A stretch of 64,000 bases of DNA from Candidatus Omnitrophota bacterium (GTDB lineage Bacteria; Omnitrophota; Gorgyraeia; Gygaellales; Profunditerraquicolaceae), in the NCBI GenBank assembly GCA_022710715.1, contig JAKLGJ010000002.1, positions 437,453-501,452 of the forward strand, read 5' to 3'. The translations under genes were made by a program, and so were the position numbers. The notes under the pieces are model-generated. The model saw nothing but the letters and a program-made list of their open reading frames with translations. It did no database searches and had not been told where the DNA came from. Below are positions 44,156 through 53,267 of the stretch, one piece after another. Numbering within the stretch: position 1 is the stretch's first letter; every line of letters starts with the position of its first letter.

Positions 44156-45373
44156 ATGAAGATTTTAGTCATCAATTCCGGAAGTTCCTCGATCAAATAT
44201 CAGCTCTACCGGATGCCGGATCAGCAGGTGATCGCCAAGGGGCTGCTCGAAAAGATCGGGGAAGAAATATCTTTTTTCAACCAGAAAAGCCAGAAAGGAA
44301 CTCTCGAATTACGTAAGCAGATCTCCACCCACGAGCAGGGGATCATGTTCATCCTCGAAATGCTTGCGGATCGCGAGCAGGGTGTGATTGCTTCCGTTAA
44401 AGAGATCTCGGGTATCGGCCATCGCGTGGTGCATGGCGGGGAAGAGTTTACCGCTTCGGTCTTGATCACCCCGGAGGTAGTAGCGAAGATTCAGCAATAC
44501 GCCGACCTGGCGCCGCTGCATAACCCCCCGAATCTCATGGGGATTACCGCTTGCACCAAATCGCTGCCCCAGGCGATTCAGGTCGCCGCTTTTGACACCG
44601 CTTTTCATCACAGCCTTCCTCCGCACGCCTATTTATACGCTCTGCCCTACGGTTTGTACAAAAAATTCGGCATTCGCCGGTACGGCTTCCACGGGACGTC
44701 CCACCGGTATGTCAGCAAACGCCTGGCGGCTATCCTCAACCGGCCGATCGAGGAGTTGAACGTGATCACCTGTCATCTCGGCAACGGCTGCAGTATGGCT
44801 GCGGTGGAAAAGGGATTGTCCGTTGATACCAGCATGGGGCTTACTCCGCTGGAGGGCCTGGTGATGGGGACGCGTTCCGGAGATATCGACCCGGCCATCG
44901 TTTTTTACCTGGTGGATAAAGGATACGCGCCGGCGGATATCAACCGTTTGCTCAACAAGCAGAGCGGATTGCTGGGCATTTCCGAGATCAGCAATGATAT
45001 GCGTAATCTTATAGAGGCCAGGGATAAAGGCGATGAGCGGGCGCGTATTGCCATTGAAATTTTCTGCTATCGTTTGCGCAAATATATCGGTTCCTACCTC
45101 GCGGTGCTGGGCAGGACCGACGCCGTCATCTTCACCGGCGGCATCGGGGAAAATAATGCCATGATCCGCTGGGAGTGTCTCAAGGGATTGCGGGAATTGG
45201 GCATTGAGATGGATGAGACGCTCAACGCCCAGGCAGTCAAAGGTGCGGAAGCGAAAGTCAGTTCCGCTGCTTCGAAAACGGGCGTTTTTGTCATCCCTAC
45301 CAACGAAGAATTGCAGATCGCGAATGATACCTATGAAATTACCCACCGACTGGTCAAAGTTCAGGAGGATTGA
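44156..45373 (+). CDS. ackA: acetate kinase
   Basis: 405 aa. MKILVINSGSSSIKYQLY, HLGNGCS and other canonical AckA motifs. Confidence 0.95.
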   Translation: MKILVINSGSSSIKYQLYRMPDQQVIAKGLLEKIGEEISFFNQKSQKGTLELRKQISTHEQGIMFILEMLADREQGVIASVKEISGIGHRVVHGGEEFTASVLITPEVVAKIQQYADLAPLHNPPNLMGITACTKSLPQAIQVAAFDTAFHHSLPPHAYLYALPYGLYKKFGIRRYGFHGTSHRYVSKRLAAILNRPIEELNVITCHLGNGCSMAAVEKGLSVDTSMGLTPLEGLVMGTRSGDIDPAIVFYLVDKGYAPADINRLLNKQSGLLGISEISNDMRNLIEARDKGDERARIAIEIFCYRLRKYIGSYLAVLGRTDAVIFTGGIGENNAMIRWECLKGLRELGIEMDETLNAQAVKGAEAKVSSAASKTGVFVIPTNEELQIANDTYEITHRLVKVQED

Positions 45374-46188
45374 TGTTCAGGATACTTGATACGTATACCC
45401 TCGGTCCCAAGATGCATTATATGCTCATGGAGGCGCCGTTGATCGCCCGCAAGGCGCGGGCCGGCCAATTCGTGATTGTCCGGGTCAGGGAACAGGGAGA
45501 GCGCATTCCGTTGACTATTGCCGATTATGACCGCCAGCAGGGGACGGTGACCCTGGTGTTCCAGGAGGTCGGTAAGACCACCTGTATGCTGGGCGCTATG
45601 AAAAAAGGCGATGTGTTGCTGGATCTGCTGGGCCCGCAGGGCAATCCCACCGAGATCGAGAAATTCGGTCATGTCGCGGTTGTCGGCGGAGGGATCGGCG
45701 TTGCTCCGGTGTATCCGCTTGCCCGGGCGTTGAAAGAGGCCGGCAATAAGGTCACCGCGATCATCGGTTATCGTTCAAAAGAGCATGTTTTCTGGGAAGA
45801 TAAGATGAAGGCGGCCTCGGACAATCTGATCATCGCTACGAATGACGGTTCCTACGGCAGGAAGGGTTTTGTCACCGATATGCTCAAAGAGCTGATGGCC
45901 GGCGCCGAAGCGATCAACGTCGTTTTTGCCATCGGGCCCGCGGTGATGATGAAAGCCGTGTGCGATATGACCCGCCAGGCGAATCTCAAGACCATTGTCA
46001 GCCTCAACTCGCTGATGGTGTGCGGTATGGGTATGTGCGGCGCCTGTCGGGTAACGGTTGCCGGGAAGACTAAATTTACCTGCATGGACGGTCCTGATTT
46101 CGACGGCCATCAGGTCGATTTCCCGGAATTGATGAAACGGCTTGAAAGCTATAAGTGCGAAGAATGCGCTTGCCAGAGCGCAGGATAA
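45373..46188 (+). CDS. NfnA / SudB-like FAD and [2Fe-2S] oxidoreductase subunit (PyrK-like)
   Basis: About 270 aa. FNR-like FAD/NAD fold with a C-terminal Cys cluster (CGMGMCGACRV…C). The ATG overlaps the ackA stop (TGATG). Confidence 0.7.
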   Translation: MFRILDTYTLGPKMHYMLMEAPLIARKARAGQFVIVRVREQGERIPLTIADYDRQQGTVTLVFQEVGKTTCMLGAMKKGDVLLDLLGPQGNPTEIEKFGHVAVVGGGIGVAPVYPLARALKEAGNKVTAIIGYRSKEHVFWEDKMKAASDNLIIATNDGSYGRKGFVTDMLKELMAGAEAINVVFAIGPAVMMKAVCDMTRQANLKTIVSLNSLMVCGMGMCGACRVTVAGKTKFTCMDGPDFDGHQVDFPELMKRLESYKCEECACQSAG

Positions 46189-46259
46189 GTGCCCTCCCCC
46201 TAGTCGGTGGAATGTCCACAGAGTGAGTGGAACAGGGTGCAACCAGGTAAGGAGTTCCT

Positions 46260-51483: not shown

Positions 51484-51500
51484 AAAACAGGAGCATACCT

Positions 51501-53267
51501 ATGGCTGAAAAGAAAGTGACGATCAAAATTGACGGGCGCCAGTATCAGGTCGACGCCGGAATCAGTATTCTGAAAGCCTGCCGGCAGGTGGGGATCGATA
51601 TCCCGACTATCTGTTATCTGGATGGAGTCAGCGAGGAAGCCGCCTGTTCCATTTGCGTGGTGGAAGTCAAGAACGCCAAAACGCTGATGCGCTCGTGCGT
51701 GACTTCGGTCAGCGAGGGCATGGAGATAGCGACTGCCACTGATCGGGTCAGGAAGGCCCGGCGGCTCAACCTTGAGCTGCTGCTCGCCGGACATCCCAAA
51801 GATTGTTTTGTCTGCGACCGCAACCAGACTTGCGAATTGCGCAGGATCGCCTACGAGATGGGCATCCGCGATGTGCGTTTCCCCAAGGCCACGAAATTCG
51901 ATATGGAGCTCGATCAGACTTCGCCCTCCCTGATCCGCGATCCCAACAAGTGCATTCTTTGCCGCAGGTGTATCTCTGTCTGCGCAAACGTGCAGACCGT
52001 GCATGCGATAGACGCCACCCAGCGGGGCAAATTGACCAGGATCTCCACCTTTATGGATAAAGGCCTGGGTAACGTGGAATGCGTAAATTGCGGGCAGTGC
52101 CTGATGGTCTGTCCCACCGGGGCGATCATCGAGAATAACGCGATCTCCGGAGTCTGGCAGGCGTTGGCGGATTCCCGGAAATACGTGGTGGTGGAAACCG
52201 CTCCGGCGGTGCGCGCGGCTATCGGTGAAGAATTCGGTATGCCTGCGGGCAGCCTGGTTACGGGCAAGATGGCGGCGGCGTTGCGCCGGCTGGGTTTCGA
52301 CAAAGTGTTCGATACGCAGTTCTCCGCGGATCTGACCATCATGGAAGAAGGGTTTGAGCTGATCGACCGGATCAAGAGCAAAGGCGCGTTACCGTTGATC
52401 ACTTCCTGTTCTCCGGGCTGGATCAAATTCGCCGAGCATTTTTATCCCAAGGTGCTGGAGCATATTTCCAGCTGCAAGTCGCCGCAACAGATGTTCGGCG
52501 CTGTGGCCAAGACCTACTATGCGGAGAAACTCGGGATCGATCCGCGGAATATGACGGTGGTTTCGATCATGCCCTGCACAGCCAAGAAATTCGAAGCCGT
52601 CCGGTCGGAGATGGACAGCGCGTTCGACTATTGGAAACAGAAAATGCACCTGAAGGATGAGGAGCGTTTTCCCGACGTCGATTTTGTCCTGACTACCCGC
52701 GAGGCGGCCCGGATGATCAAAGAGACGGGGATCAATTTTGTCAGTCTGGCGGATGAGCGGTTTGACGAGCCGCTGGGGGTTTCCACCGGCGCAGCGGTCA
52801 TATTCGGCGCGACCGGCGGGGTGATGGAAGCGGCGCTGCGCACTGCCTACGAAGTGCTTACCGGCAAGACGCTGGAGAAAATAGATTTCGAAACGGTGCG
52901 CGGGTTGAAAGGGATCAAGACCGCCGAGATCGATATTGACGGAAAAAAACTGAAAGTCGCTGTGGCCAGTTCCCTGGGCAATGCCCGGGTTTTGCTGGAT
53001 GAAGTCCAGAAGGGCGTCTCACCCTATGCGTTTATCGAGATCATGACCTGTCCCGGCGGTTGCCTGGGCGGGGGCGGCCAGCCTATTCCGACTACCGACG
53101 AAATCCGTCAGAAACGCATGGACGCGATTTATCAGGAAGACCGGAATATGCCGCTGCGCAAATCGCACGAGAATCCCGCGGTAACGGCGCTGTATAAGGA
53201 ATTCATGGAAAAGCCGTTGAGCGAAAAATCGCACCATCTGTTGCATACCCACTATGCGCCGCGTTAA
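51501..53267 (+). CDS. hydA: [FeFe]-hydrogenase catalytic subunit HydA (N-terminal 2Fe-2S/4Fe-4S ferredoxin domains plus H-cluster domain), with an atypical L1 motif
   Basis: 588 aa. H-cluster motifs L2 MPCTAKKFE and L3 EIMTCPGGCLGGGGQP are canonical. L1 reads TSCSPGW instead of TSCCPxW. Confidence 0.85.
   Translation: MAEKKVTIKIDGRQYQVDAGISILKACRQVGIDIPTICYLDGVSEEAACSICVVEVKNAKTLMRSCVTSVSEGMEIATATDRVRKARRLNLELLLAGHPKDCFVCDRNQTCELRRIAYEMGIRDVRFPKATKFDMELDQTSPSLIRDPNKCILCRRCISVCANVQTVHAIDATQRGKLTRISTFMDKGLGNVECVNCGQCLMVCPTGAIIENNAISGVWQALADSRKYVVVETAPAVRAAIGEEFGMPAGSLVTGKMAAALRRLGFDKVFDTQFSADLTIMEEGFELIDRIKSKGALPLITSCSPGWIKFAEHFYPKVLEHISSCKSPQQMFGAVAKTYYAEKLGIDPRNMTVVSIMPCTAKKFEAVRSEMDSAFDYWKQKMHLKDEERFPDVDFVLTTREAARMIKETGINFVSLADERFDEPLGVSTGAAVIFGATGGVMEAALRTAYEVLTGKTLEKIDFETVRGLKGIKTAEIDIDGKKLKVAVASSLGNARVLLDEVQKGVSPYAFIEIMTCPGGCLGGGGQPIPTTDEIRQKRMDAIYQEDRNMPLRKSHENPAVTALYKEFMEKPLSEKSHHLLHTHYAPR

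Follow-up and report, generated by a model that had tools for sequence, protein, structure and literature searches.

The window analysed here is a stretch of 64,000 nucleotides from a Candidatus Omnitrophota bacterium (contig JAKLGJ010000002.1). It contains a gene cluster whose products are predicted to form a heterotrimeric group-A3-like [FeFe]-hydrogenase, HydA-HydB*-HydC. HydB* is a fusion of a NuoF-type core, which binds flavin mononucleotide (FMN), with a GltD-type module that carries flavin adenine dinucleotide (FAD) and an NADPH site. The GltD module replaces, rather than supplements, the C-terminal ferredoxin-like domain with clusters B3 and B4, and it follows directly after the zinc hinge. 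The favoured reading, at about even odds, is that the enzyme couples H2 with both NAD(H) and NADP(H), in which case NADP(H), via the FAD and two GltD clusters, would lie on the former ferredoxin arm. This reading draws on the retention of everything up to the hinge and on the GltD clusters, which follow the hinge where B3/B4 would be. The three genes are as follows.

47789..48319, + strand: hydC, NuoE/BfuC-like thioredoxin-fold [2Fe-2S] subunit (Pfam 2Fe-2S_thioredx, PF01257, 7.1e-42)
48316..51483, + strand: hydB::gltD fusion, 1055 aa, one uninterrupted open reading frame (ORF) (ORF list, Pfam domains, homologue length and architecture)
51501..53267, + strand: hydA, M3-type [FeFe]-hydrogenase catalytic subunit (Pfam, NCBIfam, PDB alignments, H-cluster motifs)

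Architecture of the fusion protein

The fusion can be divided into six segments.

48316..48705, + strand: residues 1-130, N-terminal thioredoxin-like domain (B5 site) with C34, C65 and C69 in the NfnB/StnB pattern (best alignments 9n5u_B, 9bov_B, 8oh5_B)
48763..49989, + strand: residues 150-558, NuoF/BfuB core (Pfam; TIGR01959 over 160-558)
49984..50019, + strand: residues 557-568, H557-x5-C563-x4-C568, which with C470 makes the Bfu-specific B2/Zn hinge
50035..50268, + strand: residues 574-651, GltD-type helical domain for two [4Fe-4S] clusters with C576, C580, C619, C623 and C627 (Fer4_20; 9bov_A, 9n5u_A, 8oh5_C, 5jca_L)
50332..51255, + strand: residues 673-980, FAD Rossmann fold (G678xG680xxG683) and NADPH Rossmann fold (G807xG809xxA812, Y830-R831-R832)
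51364..51450, + strand: residues 1017-1045, permuted element RKGNFKEV...ETLRCLRC, which gives C1040 and C1043 to the GltD clusters

An earlier note, made from the letters and the ORF list, had described the protein as a thioredoxin-like domain plus NuoF plus a complete GltD-like FAD/NADPH module. The Pfam annotation found the NuoF-type and GltD-type domains, with Complex1_51K (PF01512) at residues 191-362 (5.7e-48), NADH_4Fe-4S (PF10589) at 473-557 (1.7e-29), Fer4_20 at 562-651 (3.3e-21) and Pyr_redox_2 at 673-964 (3.2e-42). The match to SLBB (PF10531) is weak (residues 386-434, E 1.7e-4, 21.8 bits, below the gathering score of 27). The TIGR01959 and solved-BfuB alignments span this region, and the predicted local distance difference test score (pLDDT) of the structure model is below 50 there. 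The FMN loop GRGGAGFPTG occupies residues 198-207. Other landmarks of the NuoF core are A234-Y-M236, F314, E318/E319 and GGPSG at 429-433, and the ligands of the B1 [4Fe-4S] cluster are C487, C490, C493 and C533. In the Thermococcus sibiricus NfnABC structure paper, the B5 site of NfnB holds Zn.

The junction between the two halves is sharp. Alignments to solved HydB, NfnB and StnB chains (e.g. 8a6t_B, 7q4v_B, 9n5u_B) end at fusion residues 571-572, and the unmatched remainder of those chains, their last 57-65 residues, is the ferredoxin-like domain. Alignments to the GltD modules of 9bov_A, 9n5u_A, 8oh5_C and 5jca_L begin at residues 572-574, and the GltD cluster ligand C576 sits 8 residues past hinge C568, with 7 residues between them. 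The ferredoxin-type motif CX2CX2CX3C(P) was found in none of 80 fusions, the window protein included, and no Fer4-type (ferredoxin-like) Pfam match was found on the fusion. Since the HydB-type alignments stop where the GltD-type alignments start, and the motif is missing from 80/80 fusions, the B3/B4 domain has been replaced by a module of about 480 residues with two [4Fe-4S] clusters, an FAD and an NADPH site. The GltD domain had been proposed to add an NADPH site to a bifurcating HydABC enzyme; replacement of the ferredoxin-like domain is at odds with that proposal.

In the canonical NfnL/GltD layout, the RxxNFxEV...EAxRCLxC stretch is N-terminal and supplies two cluster ligands. The tail of the fusion aligns to residues 15-48 of 5jca_L and, by BLASTP, to residues 8-55 of the NfnB encoded in the window. 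It also matches the equivalent position after the GltD module in 9bov_A and 8oh5_C. The GltD module of the fusion is therefore circularly permuted and of the Stn/NfnABC (StnC/NfnA) type, since StnC and NfnA(Bfu) share the same permutation. A recent duplication of the neighbouring nfnB was ruled out as the origin of the GltD half, because they share only 37% identity and have different topologies.

A frameshift or assembly artefact was also ruled out, because the ORF is continuous, many homologues have equal length and the junctions are contiguous. The view that the fusion is one gene, for which a frameshift check had been named, is borne out by 120 listed protein clusters of similar length and by 80 GTDB species representatives with a contiguous junction.

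An AlphaFold2 model of the fusion as a single chain, used for domain-level fold matches only, has a mean pLDDT of 78 and a predicted template modelling score (pTM) of 0.57. In Foldseek, the first half matches BfuB chains (TM score normalised to the target, 0.74-0.85) and the second half matches NfnA/StnC and NfnI-L (5jca_L, root mean square deviation 2.2 Å, target-normalised TM 0.81). No solved chain in the Foldseek search spans both halves of the model.

Comparison with known enzymes

In Bfu enzymes, mid-potential electrons reach the FMN via the clusters of the A subunit and B1, and NAD(H) reacts at the FMN. The swinging [2Fe-2S] domain of BfuC carries low-potential electrons to B3/B4 and then to ferredoxin. 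The ferredoxin site seen experimentally lies between BfuC's C-terminal domain and the ferredoxin-like domain. The window locus shares with HydABC of Thermotoga maritima, Acetobacterium woodii and Thermoanaerobacter kivui (7p5h, 7q4v, 8a6t) the three-gene set, the HydA type, the thioredoxin-like N-domain of HydB, the FMN/NADH site, B1, the zinc hinge His/Cys, the Bfu signatures and the HydC [2Fe-2S] cluster. It differs in that its HydB has the GltD module instead of the ferredoxin-like B3/B4 domain.

Schut et al. (2022) defined BfuB by IPR011538, IPR019575, the SLBB domain IPR019554 and the ferredoxin-type domain IPR017896 (two CX2CX2CX3CP motifs), together with a neighbouring BfuC (IPR002023) and a BfuA that carries [2Fe-2S] and Fer4 domains. 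The window locus has the FMN domain, the NuoF [4Fe-4S] region, the hinge His/Cys and adjacent BfuC- and BfuA-type genes, and its fusion lacks the C-terminal ferredoxin-type domain IPR017896.

The top PDB matches of both halves are in the Stn/NfnABC enzymes (Sporomusa ovata 8oh5, Caldicellulosiruptor saccharolyticus 9bov, T. sibiricus 9n5u), with T. sibiricus NfnB at 1.2e-197 for the core and NfnA/StnC at 1e-109 to 1e-93 for the GltD module. The circular permutation of GltD and the three-Cys pattern of the N-terminal domain are also shared. In Stn/NfnABC, however, the GltD module is in the A subunit, after the N-terminal [2Fe-2S] domain, and feeds the mid-potential path A7-A6-...-B1, whereas in the window it follows the hinge and forms the C-terminal part of the B subunit. 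B3/B4 is also kept in Stn/NfnB, and the Stn A subunit has no H-cluster, while the A subunit of the window is a complete HydA. The FAD of StnC equivalent to that of the fusion is non-bifurcating. Relative to NfnSL (4ylf, 5jca), the FAD/NADPH half of the fusion is a paralogue 37-39% identical to NfnL, but it is permuted, tethered to a NuoF core and without the NfnS partner domain.

Two reports describe, at the level of annotation or modelling and without biochemistry, a NuoF-type HydB followed by a GltD or GltA domain beside a hydrogenase, and they are likened to the window here by description, not by sequence. In Vallitalea guaymasensis L81 (2018), a trimeric hydrogenase has a GltD-extended HydB, for which a second NAD(P)H site was proposed. 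For archaeal hybrid [FeFe]/[NiFe] complexes, the model of Greening et al. (2024) includes a HydB that carries a GltA domain, read as a low-potential acceptor site; the partners there differ, being a HydA-HyhS fusion, HyhL and HydD.

Conserved residues and the proposed reaction

Residue conservation was read from an alignment of the window protein with 79 fusions from GTDB loci (n=80). The GRGGAGF positions are conserved in 69-80 of the 80 fusions. GA[FY]M, F314, GGPSG and the B1 Cys are invariant (80/80), E318 is conserved in 79-80, and E319 in 79. Hinge residues C470, H557, C563 and C568 are invariant (80/80). The seven GltD cluster Cys (C576, C580, C619, C623, C627, C1040, C1043) and the FAD GxGxxG are invariant or nearly so, with the first five Cys kept in 80/80, and the NADPH-type signature G807xG809xxA812 with Y830-R831-R832 is kept in 78-80, in agreement with the complete GltD-type FAD/NAD(P)H module that had been predicted. 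R336 is invariant among the 52 close homologues in which it was examined.

Core residues are numbered 33 higher throughout than their counterparts in T. sibiricus NfnB, so that R336 corresponds to R303 and E319 to E286. In the NfnABC structure paper, R303 binds FMN/NADH and E286 selects NADH over NADPH, and A201/M203, F281, GGPSG and H524 are specific to bifurcating Bfu cores. Schut et al. found the hinge His in nearly all BfuB sequences and reported it absent from non-bifurcating homologues. The GxGxxA motif was interpreted as NADP(H)-type for StnC, and the GltD module of StnC/NfnA is experimentally an NADPH site. Based on the residues mapped to T. sibiricus NfnB and StnC, the FMN site of the fusion looks NADH-selective and the FAD site NADPH-type, with the Bfu core signatures retained. 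The NADH site at FMN had also been predicted, and its binding and selecting residues, R336 and E319, are kept. R711, first considered as the counterpart of the N5-contacting Arg of NfnL, is variable among the fusions; the true equivalent, R718 (NfnL R201, StnC R239), is invariant and therefore uninformative on whether the FAD bifurcates.

In the proposed reaction, the H-cluster would exchange electrons with the FMN via B1 and the chain of clusters in HydA, the route used in HydABC, and NAD(H) would react at the FMN. The mobile HydC [2Fe-2S] domain would serve the two GltD clusters, then the FAD and then NADP(H), instead of B3/B4 and ferredoxin. The overall reaction would be H2 <-> NADH + NADPH, or NADH + NADPH -> 2 H2 in a fermenter. 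We infer that the GltD clusters lie within reach of the HydC cluster and that NADPH is the physiological substrate, as well as the direction of the reaction; its arms may or may not be energetically coupled. The enzyme had been described as an NADH/NADPH/ferredoxin-linked or transhydrogenating hydrogenase. The NADH and NADPH sites of that description stand, while the ferredoxin link is not the default reading, as the ferredoxin arm is missing.

Several points weigh against assigning the former ferredoxin arm to NADP(H). The homologous clusters of NfnL are the docking site of ferredoxin in NfnSL. With a pTM of 0.57, the model does not fix the placement of the GltD clusters relative to the HydB/HydC core. 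NADP+ reduction from a low-potential arm would waste energy, and obligatory coupling would have no obvious advantage in the direction of H2 uptake. T. kivui HydABC uses NADP+ at its FMN site without a GltD module. A literature search for biochemical or structural data on a GltD-fused HydB returned annotation-level mentions only, and Greening et al. (2024) read the same domain as a probable ferredoxin site.

The last point leads to a possible, if somewhat improbable, alternative. The enzyme may still depend on ferredoxin for bifurcation or confurcation, with the GltD clusters standing in for B3/B4 and binding ferredoxin themselves, so that it would have four substrates (H2, NAD, NADP, ferredoxin). 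This comes close to the transhydrogenating hydrogenase suggested in the earlier note. The FAD/NADPH site would then be an additional entry or exit, and the chemistry of HydABC and Stn/Nfn would be merged in one enzyme. The ferredoxin role given to the GltA domain in the archaeal hybrid complexes is consistent with this, as are the Bfu core signatures, hinge His included (kept in 80/80 fusions), and the 37-39% identity of the module to NfnL, whose clusters lead to ferredoxin. The organism also makes and uses reduced ferredoxin, judging from the Rnf operon and NfnAB encoded in the window. However, the module is of the permuted StnC/NfnA type, which is a non-bifurcating NADPH wire in Stn and not a ferredoxin site. 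The Bfu ferredoxin site that has been seen adjoins the ferredoxin-like domain missing from the fusion, and the fusion also lacks a Lys-rich ferredoxin-docking C-terminal domain as described for A. woodii HydB.

HydA and hydrogenase class

The HydA of the window has Pfam matches to Fe_hyd_lg_C (3.1e-95), Fe_hyd_SSU, Fer2_4, NADH-G_4Fe-4S_3 and Fer4 domains. This is the full M3 architecture, with a [2Fe-2S] cluster, a His-ligated [4Fe-4S] cluster, two further [4Fe-4S] clusters and an H-domain with a small-subunit-like tail. The protein scores 880.7 bits against NCBIfam FeFe_hydrog_A6 (NF040763, "NADH-dependent [FeFe] hydrogenase, group A6"; cutoff 765) and 523.7 bits, above the cutoff, against TIGR02512. 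Its closest solved relatives are the bifurcating enzymes of T. kivui (8a6t_A, 6.5e-196) and A. woodii (7q4v_A, 4.6e-189).

The canonical L2 and L3 motifs of the H-cluster, already recognised in the earlier note, are MPCTAKKFE and EIMTCPGGCLGGGGQP. The L1 motif is TSCSPGW (residues 301-307, 52401-52421), and the textbook form is TSCCPxW. The variant is identical to that of the catalytically active A. woodii HydA1 (7q4v_A) and occurs in 37/40 HydA genes of related loci. An extra Cys is present in SSCKSPQ (residues ~322-328, ~52464-52484), where CpI has SSAKSPQ. The pair TSCSPGW and SSCKSPQ is also found in A. woodii HydA1.

HydDB assigns group A3 when the neighbouring protein has NuoF, and group A2 when it has GltD but not NuoF. 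The protein adjacent to HydA has both NuoF and GltD domains; therefore, HydA is of the A3 type by this rule, here applied by hand to a gene neighbourhood in which the NuoF gene lies upstream of hydA, while the rule inspects the downstream gene. Group A2 (GltD-linked, dimeric and glutamate-synthase-linked) was ruled out because the partner carries a full NuoF core. The HydA alignments and the NCBIfam match agree with the rule, and the NuoEF partnership on which the earlier note depended is thus upheld. The wording "GltD but not NuoF" also implies that two-domain proteins had already been met and filed as A3.

Relatives and partner genes

A search of 5.8 billion proteins gave 8000 matches at E <= 1e-50, of which the best 120 clusters were listed. 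These 120 clusters are 1024-1058 aa long (nearly all 1042-1058), share 61-75% identity with the window protein and come from independent assemblies. Their labels are Omnitrophota, Bacteroidales, Rikenellaceae, Margulisiibacteriota and Deltaproteobacteria. At 50% clustering, several further full-length fusion clusters were found at 31-57% identity.

Some of these further clusters have a degenerate FMN loop and some have extra C-terminal Fer4 domains. In three divergent full-length fusions (P0128, P0144 and P0154, 34-36% identity), the FMN loop (e.g. GMKDREGMSGFPT) and parts of the B1 motif are degenerate and the GltD half is intact. These proteins may be FMN-less relatives.

The junction itself was scanned by tblastn, with the alignment limited to residues 455-730, in one genome per GTDB species. 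There are at least 592 confirmed matches among the GTDB species genomes. The best 80 of these all carry a match across the fusion junction and come from more than 15 phyla, including Omnitrophota, Bacteroidota, Acidobacteriota, Spirochaetota, Firmicutes, Chloroflexota, Desulfobacterota, Verrucomicrobiota, Planctomycetota, Armatimonadota, Nitrospirota, Alphaproteobacteria, Firestonebacteria and a Promethearchaeota (Loki) metagenome-assembled genome (MAG); assembly frameshifts break three of the 80 ORFs, and a contig end truncates one. In the three interrupted cases (MAG contigs L022, L026 and L081), the ORF breaks off within the FAD domain or shortly ahead of it, and the frame then reads as Arg/Ala-rich nonsense. 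The breaks are probably assembly frameshifts in high-GC genomes and not natural split genes.

Partner genes were annotated in 86 loci by BLASTP against the window proteins. A hydC-like gene is paired with the fusion in essentially all complete loci, and about 35 loci across many phyla keep the hydC-fusion-hydA trio. HydA (~590 aa) lies directly downstream of the fusion in 30 loci. The HydA-linked loci include Omnitrophota, Bacteroidota, Sphaerochaeta, Firmicutes, Spirochaetota, phyla of the Planctomycetes-Verrucomicrobia-Chlamydiae (PVC) group, Armatimonadota, Nitrospirota and some Syntrophales.

Other loci have other redox partners. A HoxU-like gene (~240 aa) is found in 17 loci, with the order NuoE-like, fusion, HoxU-like in loci L009-L020. 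The genes beyond the HoxU-like one were looked at in a single locus, from a member of the Bryobacterales (Acidobacteriota; L013, 8103-14494), which reads HoxE-like, NuoF::GltD, HoxU-like (236 aa), [NiFe] small subunit and [NiFe] large subunit, with the fusion in the place of HoxF. A molybdopterin formate-dehydrogenase-like partner (~890-1100 aa) is found in 10 loci. In an uncultured Desulfobacterium (L082, 4420-13482), the order is MTHFR-like, formate-dehydrogenase-like (884 aa), NuoE, fusion, MetV and MetF, which recalls stnABC beside metVF in Sporomusa ovata. In a tree of the fusions built by neighbour joining, the type of partner mostly follows the clade, and the HydA-linked clade of the window is sister to the Hox-linked Acidobacteriota clade. 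With HydA, HoxU/[NiFe] and formate dehydrogenase as partners across the loci, NuoE plus NuoF::GltD appears to be a mobile, general diaphorase module for [FeFe], Hox [NiFe] and formate-dehydrogenase systems.

Two further arrangements are more complex. Four loci (L032, L037, L065 and L066, ~7900-15900 each) have the order hydC1, fusion, hydC2, hydB2 (540-560 aa) and hydA, and a fifth (L086) has the same order with a NuoG-like gene (~680 aa) instead of HydA at the end. The hydB2 of all five lacks ferredoxin-like motifs and GA[FY]M. Loci of the first kind may encode a five-subunit hydrogenase with one fusion-type and one plain diaphorase pair. In a Bacteroidota locus (L003, 15012-18484, - strand), a second trimeric hydrogenase is convergent to the fusion-type one. 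Its HydB of 394 aa has a NuoF core without N- or C-terminal extensions and without GA[FY]M, so that two non-canonical HydABC variants stand side by side.

The sharing of the module among these systems bears on another alternative, which we consider quite unlikely. The enzyme could be a non-bifurcating hydrogenase with dual specificity for NAD(P)H, in which both flavins would feed HydA independently and uncoupled. It would resemble the NADH-dependent HydABC of Syntrophomonas wolfei, with an extra NADPH port. As cited in the literature, the loss of B3/B4 leaves the S. wolfei enzyme unable to bifurcate, and H2 is still made from NADH at low H2 pressure. The Hox [NiFe] hydrogenases and formate dehydrogenases that NuoE plus NuoF::GltD also serves have H2 or formate couples that reduce NAD(P)+ directly, which is consistent with uncoupled flavins. 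However, strict conservation is seen for the hinge His/Cys, GA[FY]M and a HydC whose [2Fe-2S] domain is complete, features that have been described as specific to bifurcating Bfu cores. The HydB of S. wolfei shares, as cited, the lack of B3/B4 clusters but ends there without a GltD module, whereas the window protein keeps the hinge His and the N-domain.

The partner genes also make it very improbable that the GltD domain serves an acceptor other than NADPH, such as a glutamate synthase large subunit, polysulfide (as in SudA) or Fe(III) (as in SfrB). HydDB does contain GltD-linked group A2 hydrogenases that possibly feed glutamate synthase, the Vallitalea paper speculated on a glutamate link, and a glutamine synthetase gene is present in the window (26611-27945). 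However, no gltB-like large subunit was found in the window or beside the fusion in the 86 loci, the NADPH Rossmann signature is strictly conserved, and every partner gene encodes a redox catalytic subunit (HydA, HoxUYH, Fdh). Sequence tools do not separate the coupling of H2 with NAD(H) and NADP(H) from these three alternatives.

Gene order and surrounding genes

The hydrogenase genes are preceded by three others, with which they form an apparent operon.

44156..45373, + strand: ackA (acetate kinase), first gene of the apparent operon (Pfam Acetate_kinase 1.5e-155)
45370..46188, + strand: nfnA / NfnS, PyrK-like FAD/NAD and [2Fe-2S] subunit (PRK06222; PDB 5jca_S, 4ylf_A)
46260..47660, + strand: nfnB / NfnL, canonical non-permuted GltD-like FAD/NADPH subunit with two [4Fe-4S] clusters (TIGR01316; 4ylf_B, 5jca_L)

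All six ORFs from ackA to hydA are present in the order first described and run head to tail on the + strand. The consecutive gaps are -4, 71, 128, -4 and 17 nt, with 4-nt overlaps between the end of ackA and the start of nfnA and between the hydC stop and the start of the fusion. Translational coupling of hydC, the fusion and hydA follows from their gaps of -4 and 17 nt. Scans for promoters and terminators across 43900-54100 found sites no more numerous than in shuffled controls, and a sigma-70-like site ahead of ackA (44087-44114) scores no better than chance. In GCA_035343315.1, the order M48 peptidase, GAF-HD, ackA, nfnA, nfnB, hydC, fusion and hydA is the same as in the window.

The ATG at 47789 is a better start for hydC than the upstream GTG at 47699, since it has a GGGGGA Shine-Dalgarno-like element upstream and gives a protein of 176 aa, matching homologues of 174-179 aa. 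The Cys ligands of HydC are residues 117, 122, 167 and 171 in the numbering of the 206-aa ORF from GTG 47699.

The genes at 45370-47660 are a genuine NfnSL, based on the adjacency of PyrK-like and GltD-like subunits and on full-length matches to T. maritima NfnAB (4ylf) and Pyrococcus furiosus NfnI (5jca). NfnA scores 387.8 bits against PRK06222 (cutoff 220) and matches 5jca_S (3.1e-97) and 4ylf_A (1.8e-78), both over the full length. NfnB scores 588 bits against TIGR01316 (cutoff 471.75) and matches 4ylf_B (5.4e-172) and 5jca_L (7.2e-168). The fused GltD domain had been offered as the explanation for these neighbouring genes, and that part of the earlier note fares poorly. Among the 80 species-representative loci, nfnAB lies within 10 kb of the fusion in one (L049, downstream, Fdh-linked), and it otherwise adjoins the hydrogenase cluster only in the window and its close Omnitrophota relatives (L001, L002 and L005). 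A conserved functional linkage of nfnAB and the hydrogenase is unsupported beyond these relatives.

A complete Rnf-type operon is located at 7777-12674 on the - strand, so the organism should be able to interconvert ferredoxin and NADH with ion pumping.

7777-8586, - strand: RnfB-like
8590-9198, - strand: RnfA
9198-9797, - strand: RnfE-size ORF
9846-10787, - strand: RnfD
10780-11370, - strand: RnfG-size ORF
11367-12674, - strand: RnfC

Other genes lie further from the cluster. A gene with a Flavin_Reduct domain (55309-55884, + strand) is downstream of hydA and is kept in place in L001 and L002 at 15035-15607. The downstream stretch 57755-63968 also encodes a multihaem cytochrome c (57755-59077), a Fer4 protein (59454-60230), an MsrB-MsrA fusion (60227-61447) and a phosphoketolase (61596-63968). 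Upstream, an ORF of 1684 aa (33380-38434, + strand) has no Pfam match. Syntenic Omnitrophota loci have at its place, upstream of an OmpA/LysM gene, a protein of 3559-3635 aa with methyltransferase-like domains.

Implications

Multimeric [FeFe] hydrogenases set the redox balance and the H2 thresholds of anaerobic communities. One rather doubtful extension of the proposed reaction is that the hydrogenase works without ferredoxin and confurcates NADH and NADPH, with the Bfu flavobicluster core kept and its low-potential arm hard-wired to NADP(H). Calculated from the physiological potentials given by Schut et al. (NAD -280 mV, NADP -380 mV, ferredoxin -500 mV), NADH + NADPH -> 2 H2 would be possible at H2 pressures of up to about 150 Pa. 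By the same calculation, the limit would be about 3 Pa with NADH alone and about 0.15 bar with NADH + ferredoxin. NfnAB would catalyse Fd_red + NADH + 2 NADP+ -> 2 NADPH, where Fd_red is reduced ferredoxin. With NfnAB and Rnf encoded in the window, the net reaction would be Fd_red(2e-) + 3 NADH -> 4 H2. If this confurcation is true, half of the Fd_red of sugar fermentation could be free for ion pumping by Rnf, with all reductant still leaving as H2. This would be a new mode of energy conservation for low-H2, syntrophic niches. By extension, NuoE plus NuoF::GltD would be a general module for splitting electrons between NAD and NADP, also for Hox [NiFe] hydrogenases and formate dehydrogenases.

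The idea of a GltD-extended HydB is not new, and the design is common among uncultured anaerobes. It has been noted in the literature in 2016, 2018 (Vallitalea) and 2024 (Greening et al.). What the present comparison adds is the replacement of the ferredoxin arm exactly at the hinge, the assignment of the module to the permuted Stn/NfnABC type, the conservation of Bfu-core and NADPH-site residues across 80 genomes, and a NuoE plus NuoF::GltD pair that appears common to [FeFe], Hox [NiFe] and formate-dehydrogenase systems.

Genome surveys routinely call a HydA with a NuoF-type partner "bifurcating, NADH + ferredoxin" (HydDB A3). Since the fusion class lacks the ferredoxin arm and has an NADPH module, this label is probably wrong for it. 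The Bfu survey of Schut et al. (2022) filtered on the ferredoxin-type domain and therefore likely left these fusions out. The fusion enzyme would also serve as a natural experiment on the elements of the Bfu core that bifurcation requires. Reconstructions of metabolism would have to be revised for H2 thresholds, NADPH supply and ATP yield if NADP(H) takes the place of ferredoxin. This would concern Omnitrophota, many Bacteroidota, Spirochaetota, Firmicutes, PVC bacteria and Syntrophales, as well as Acidobacteriota with the Hox-linked form.

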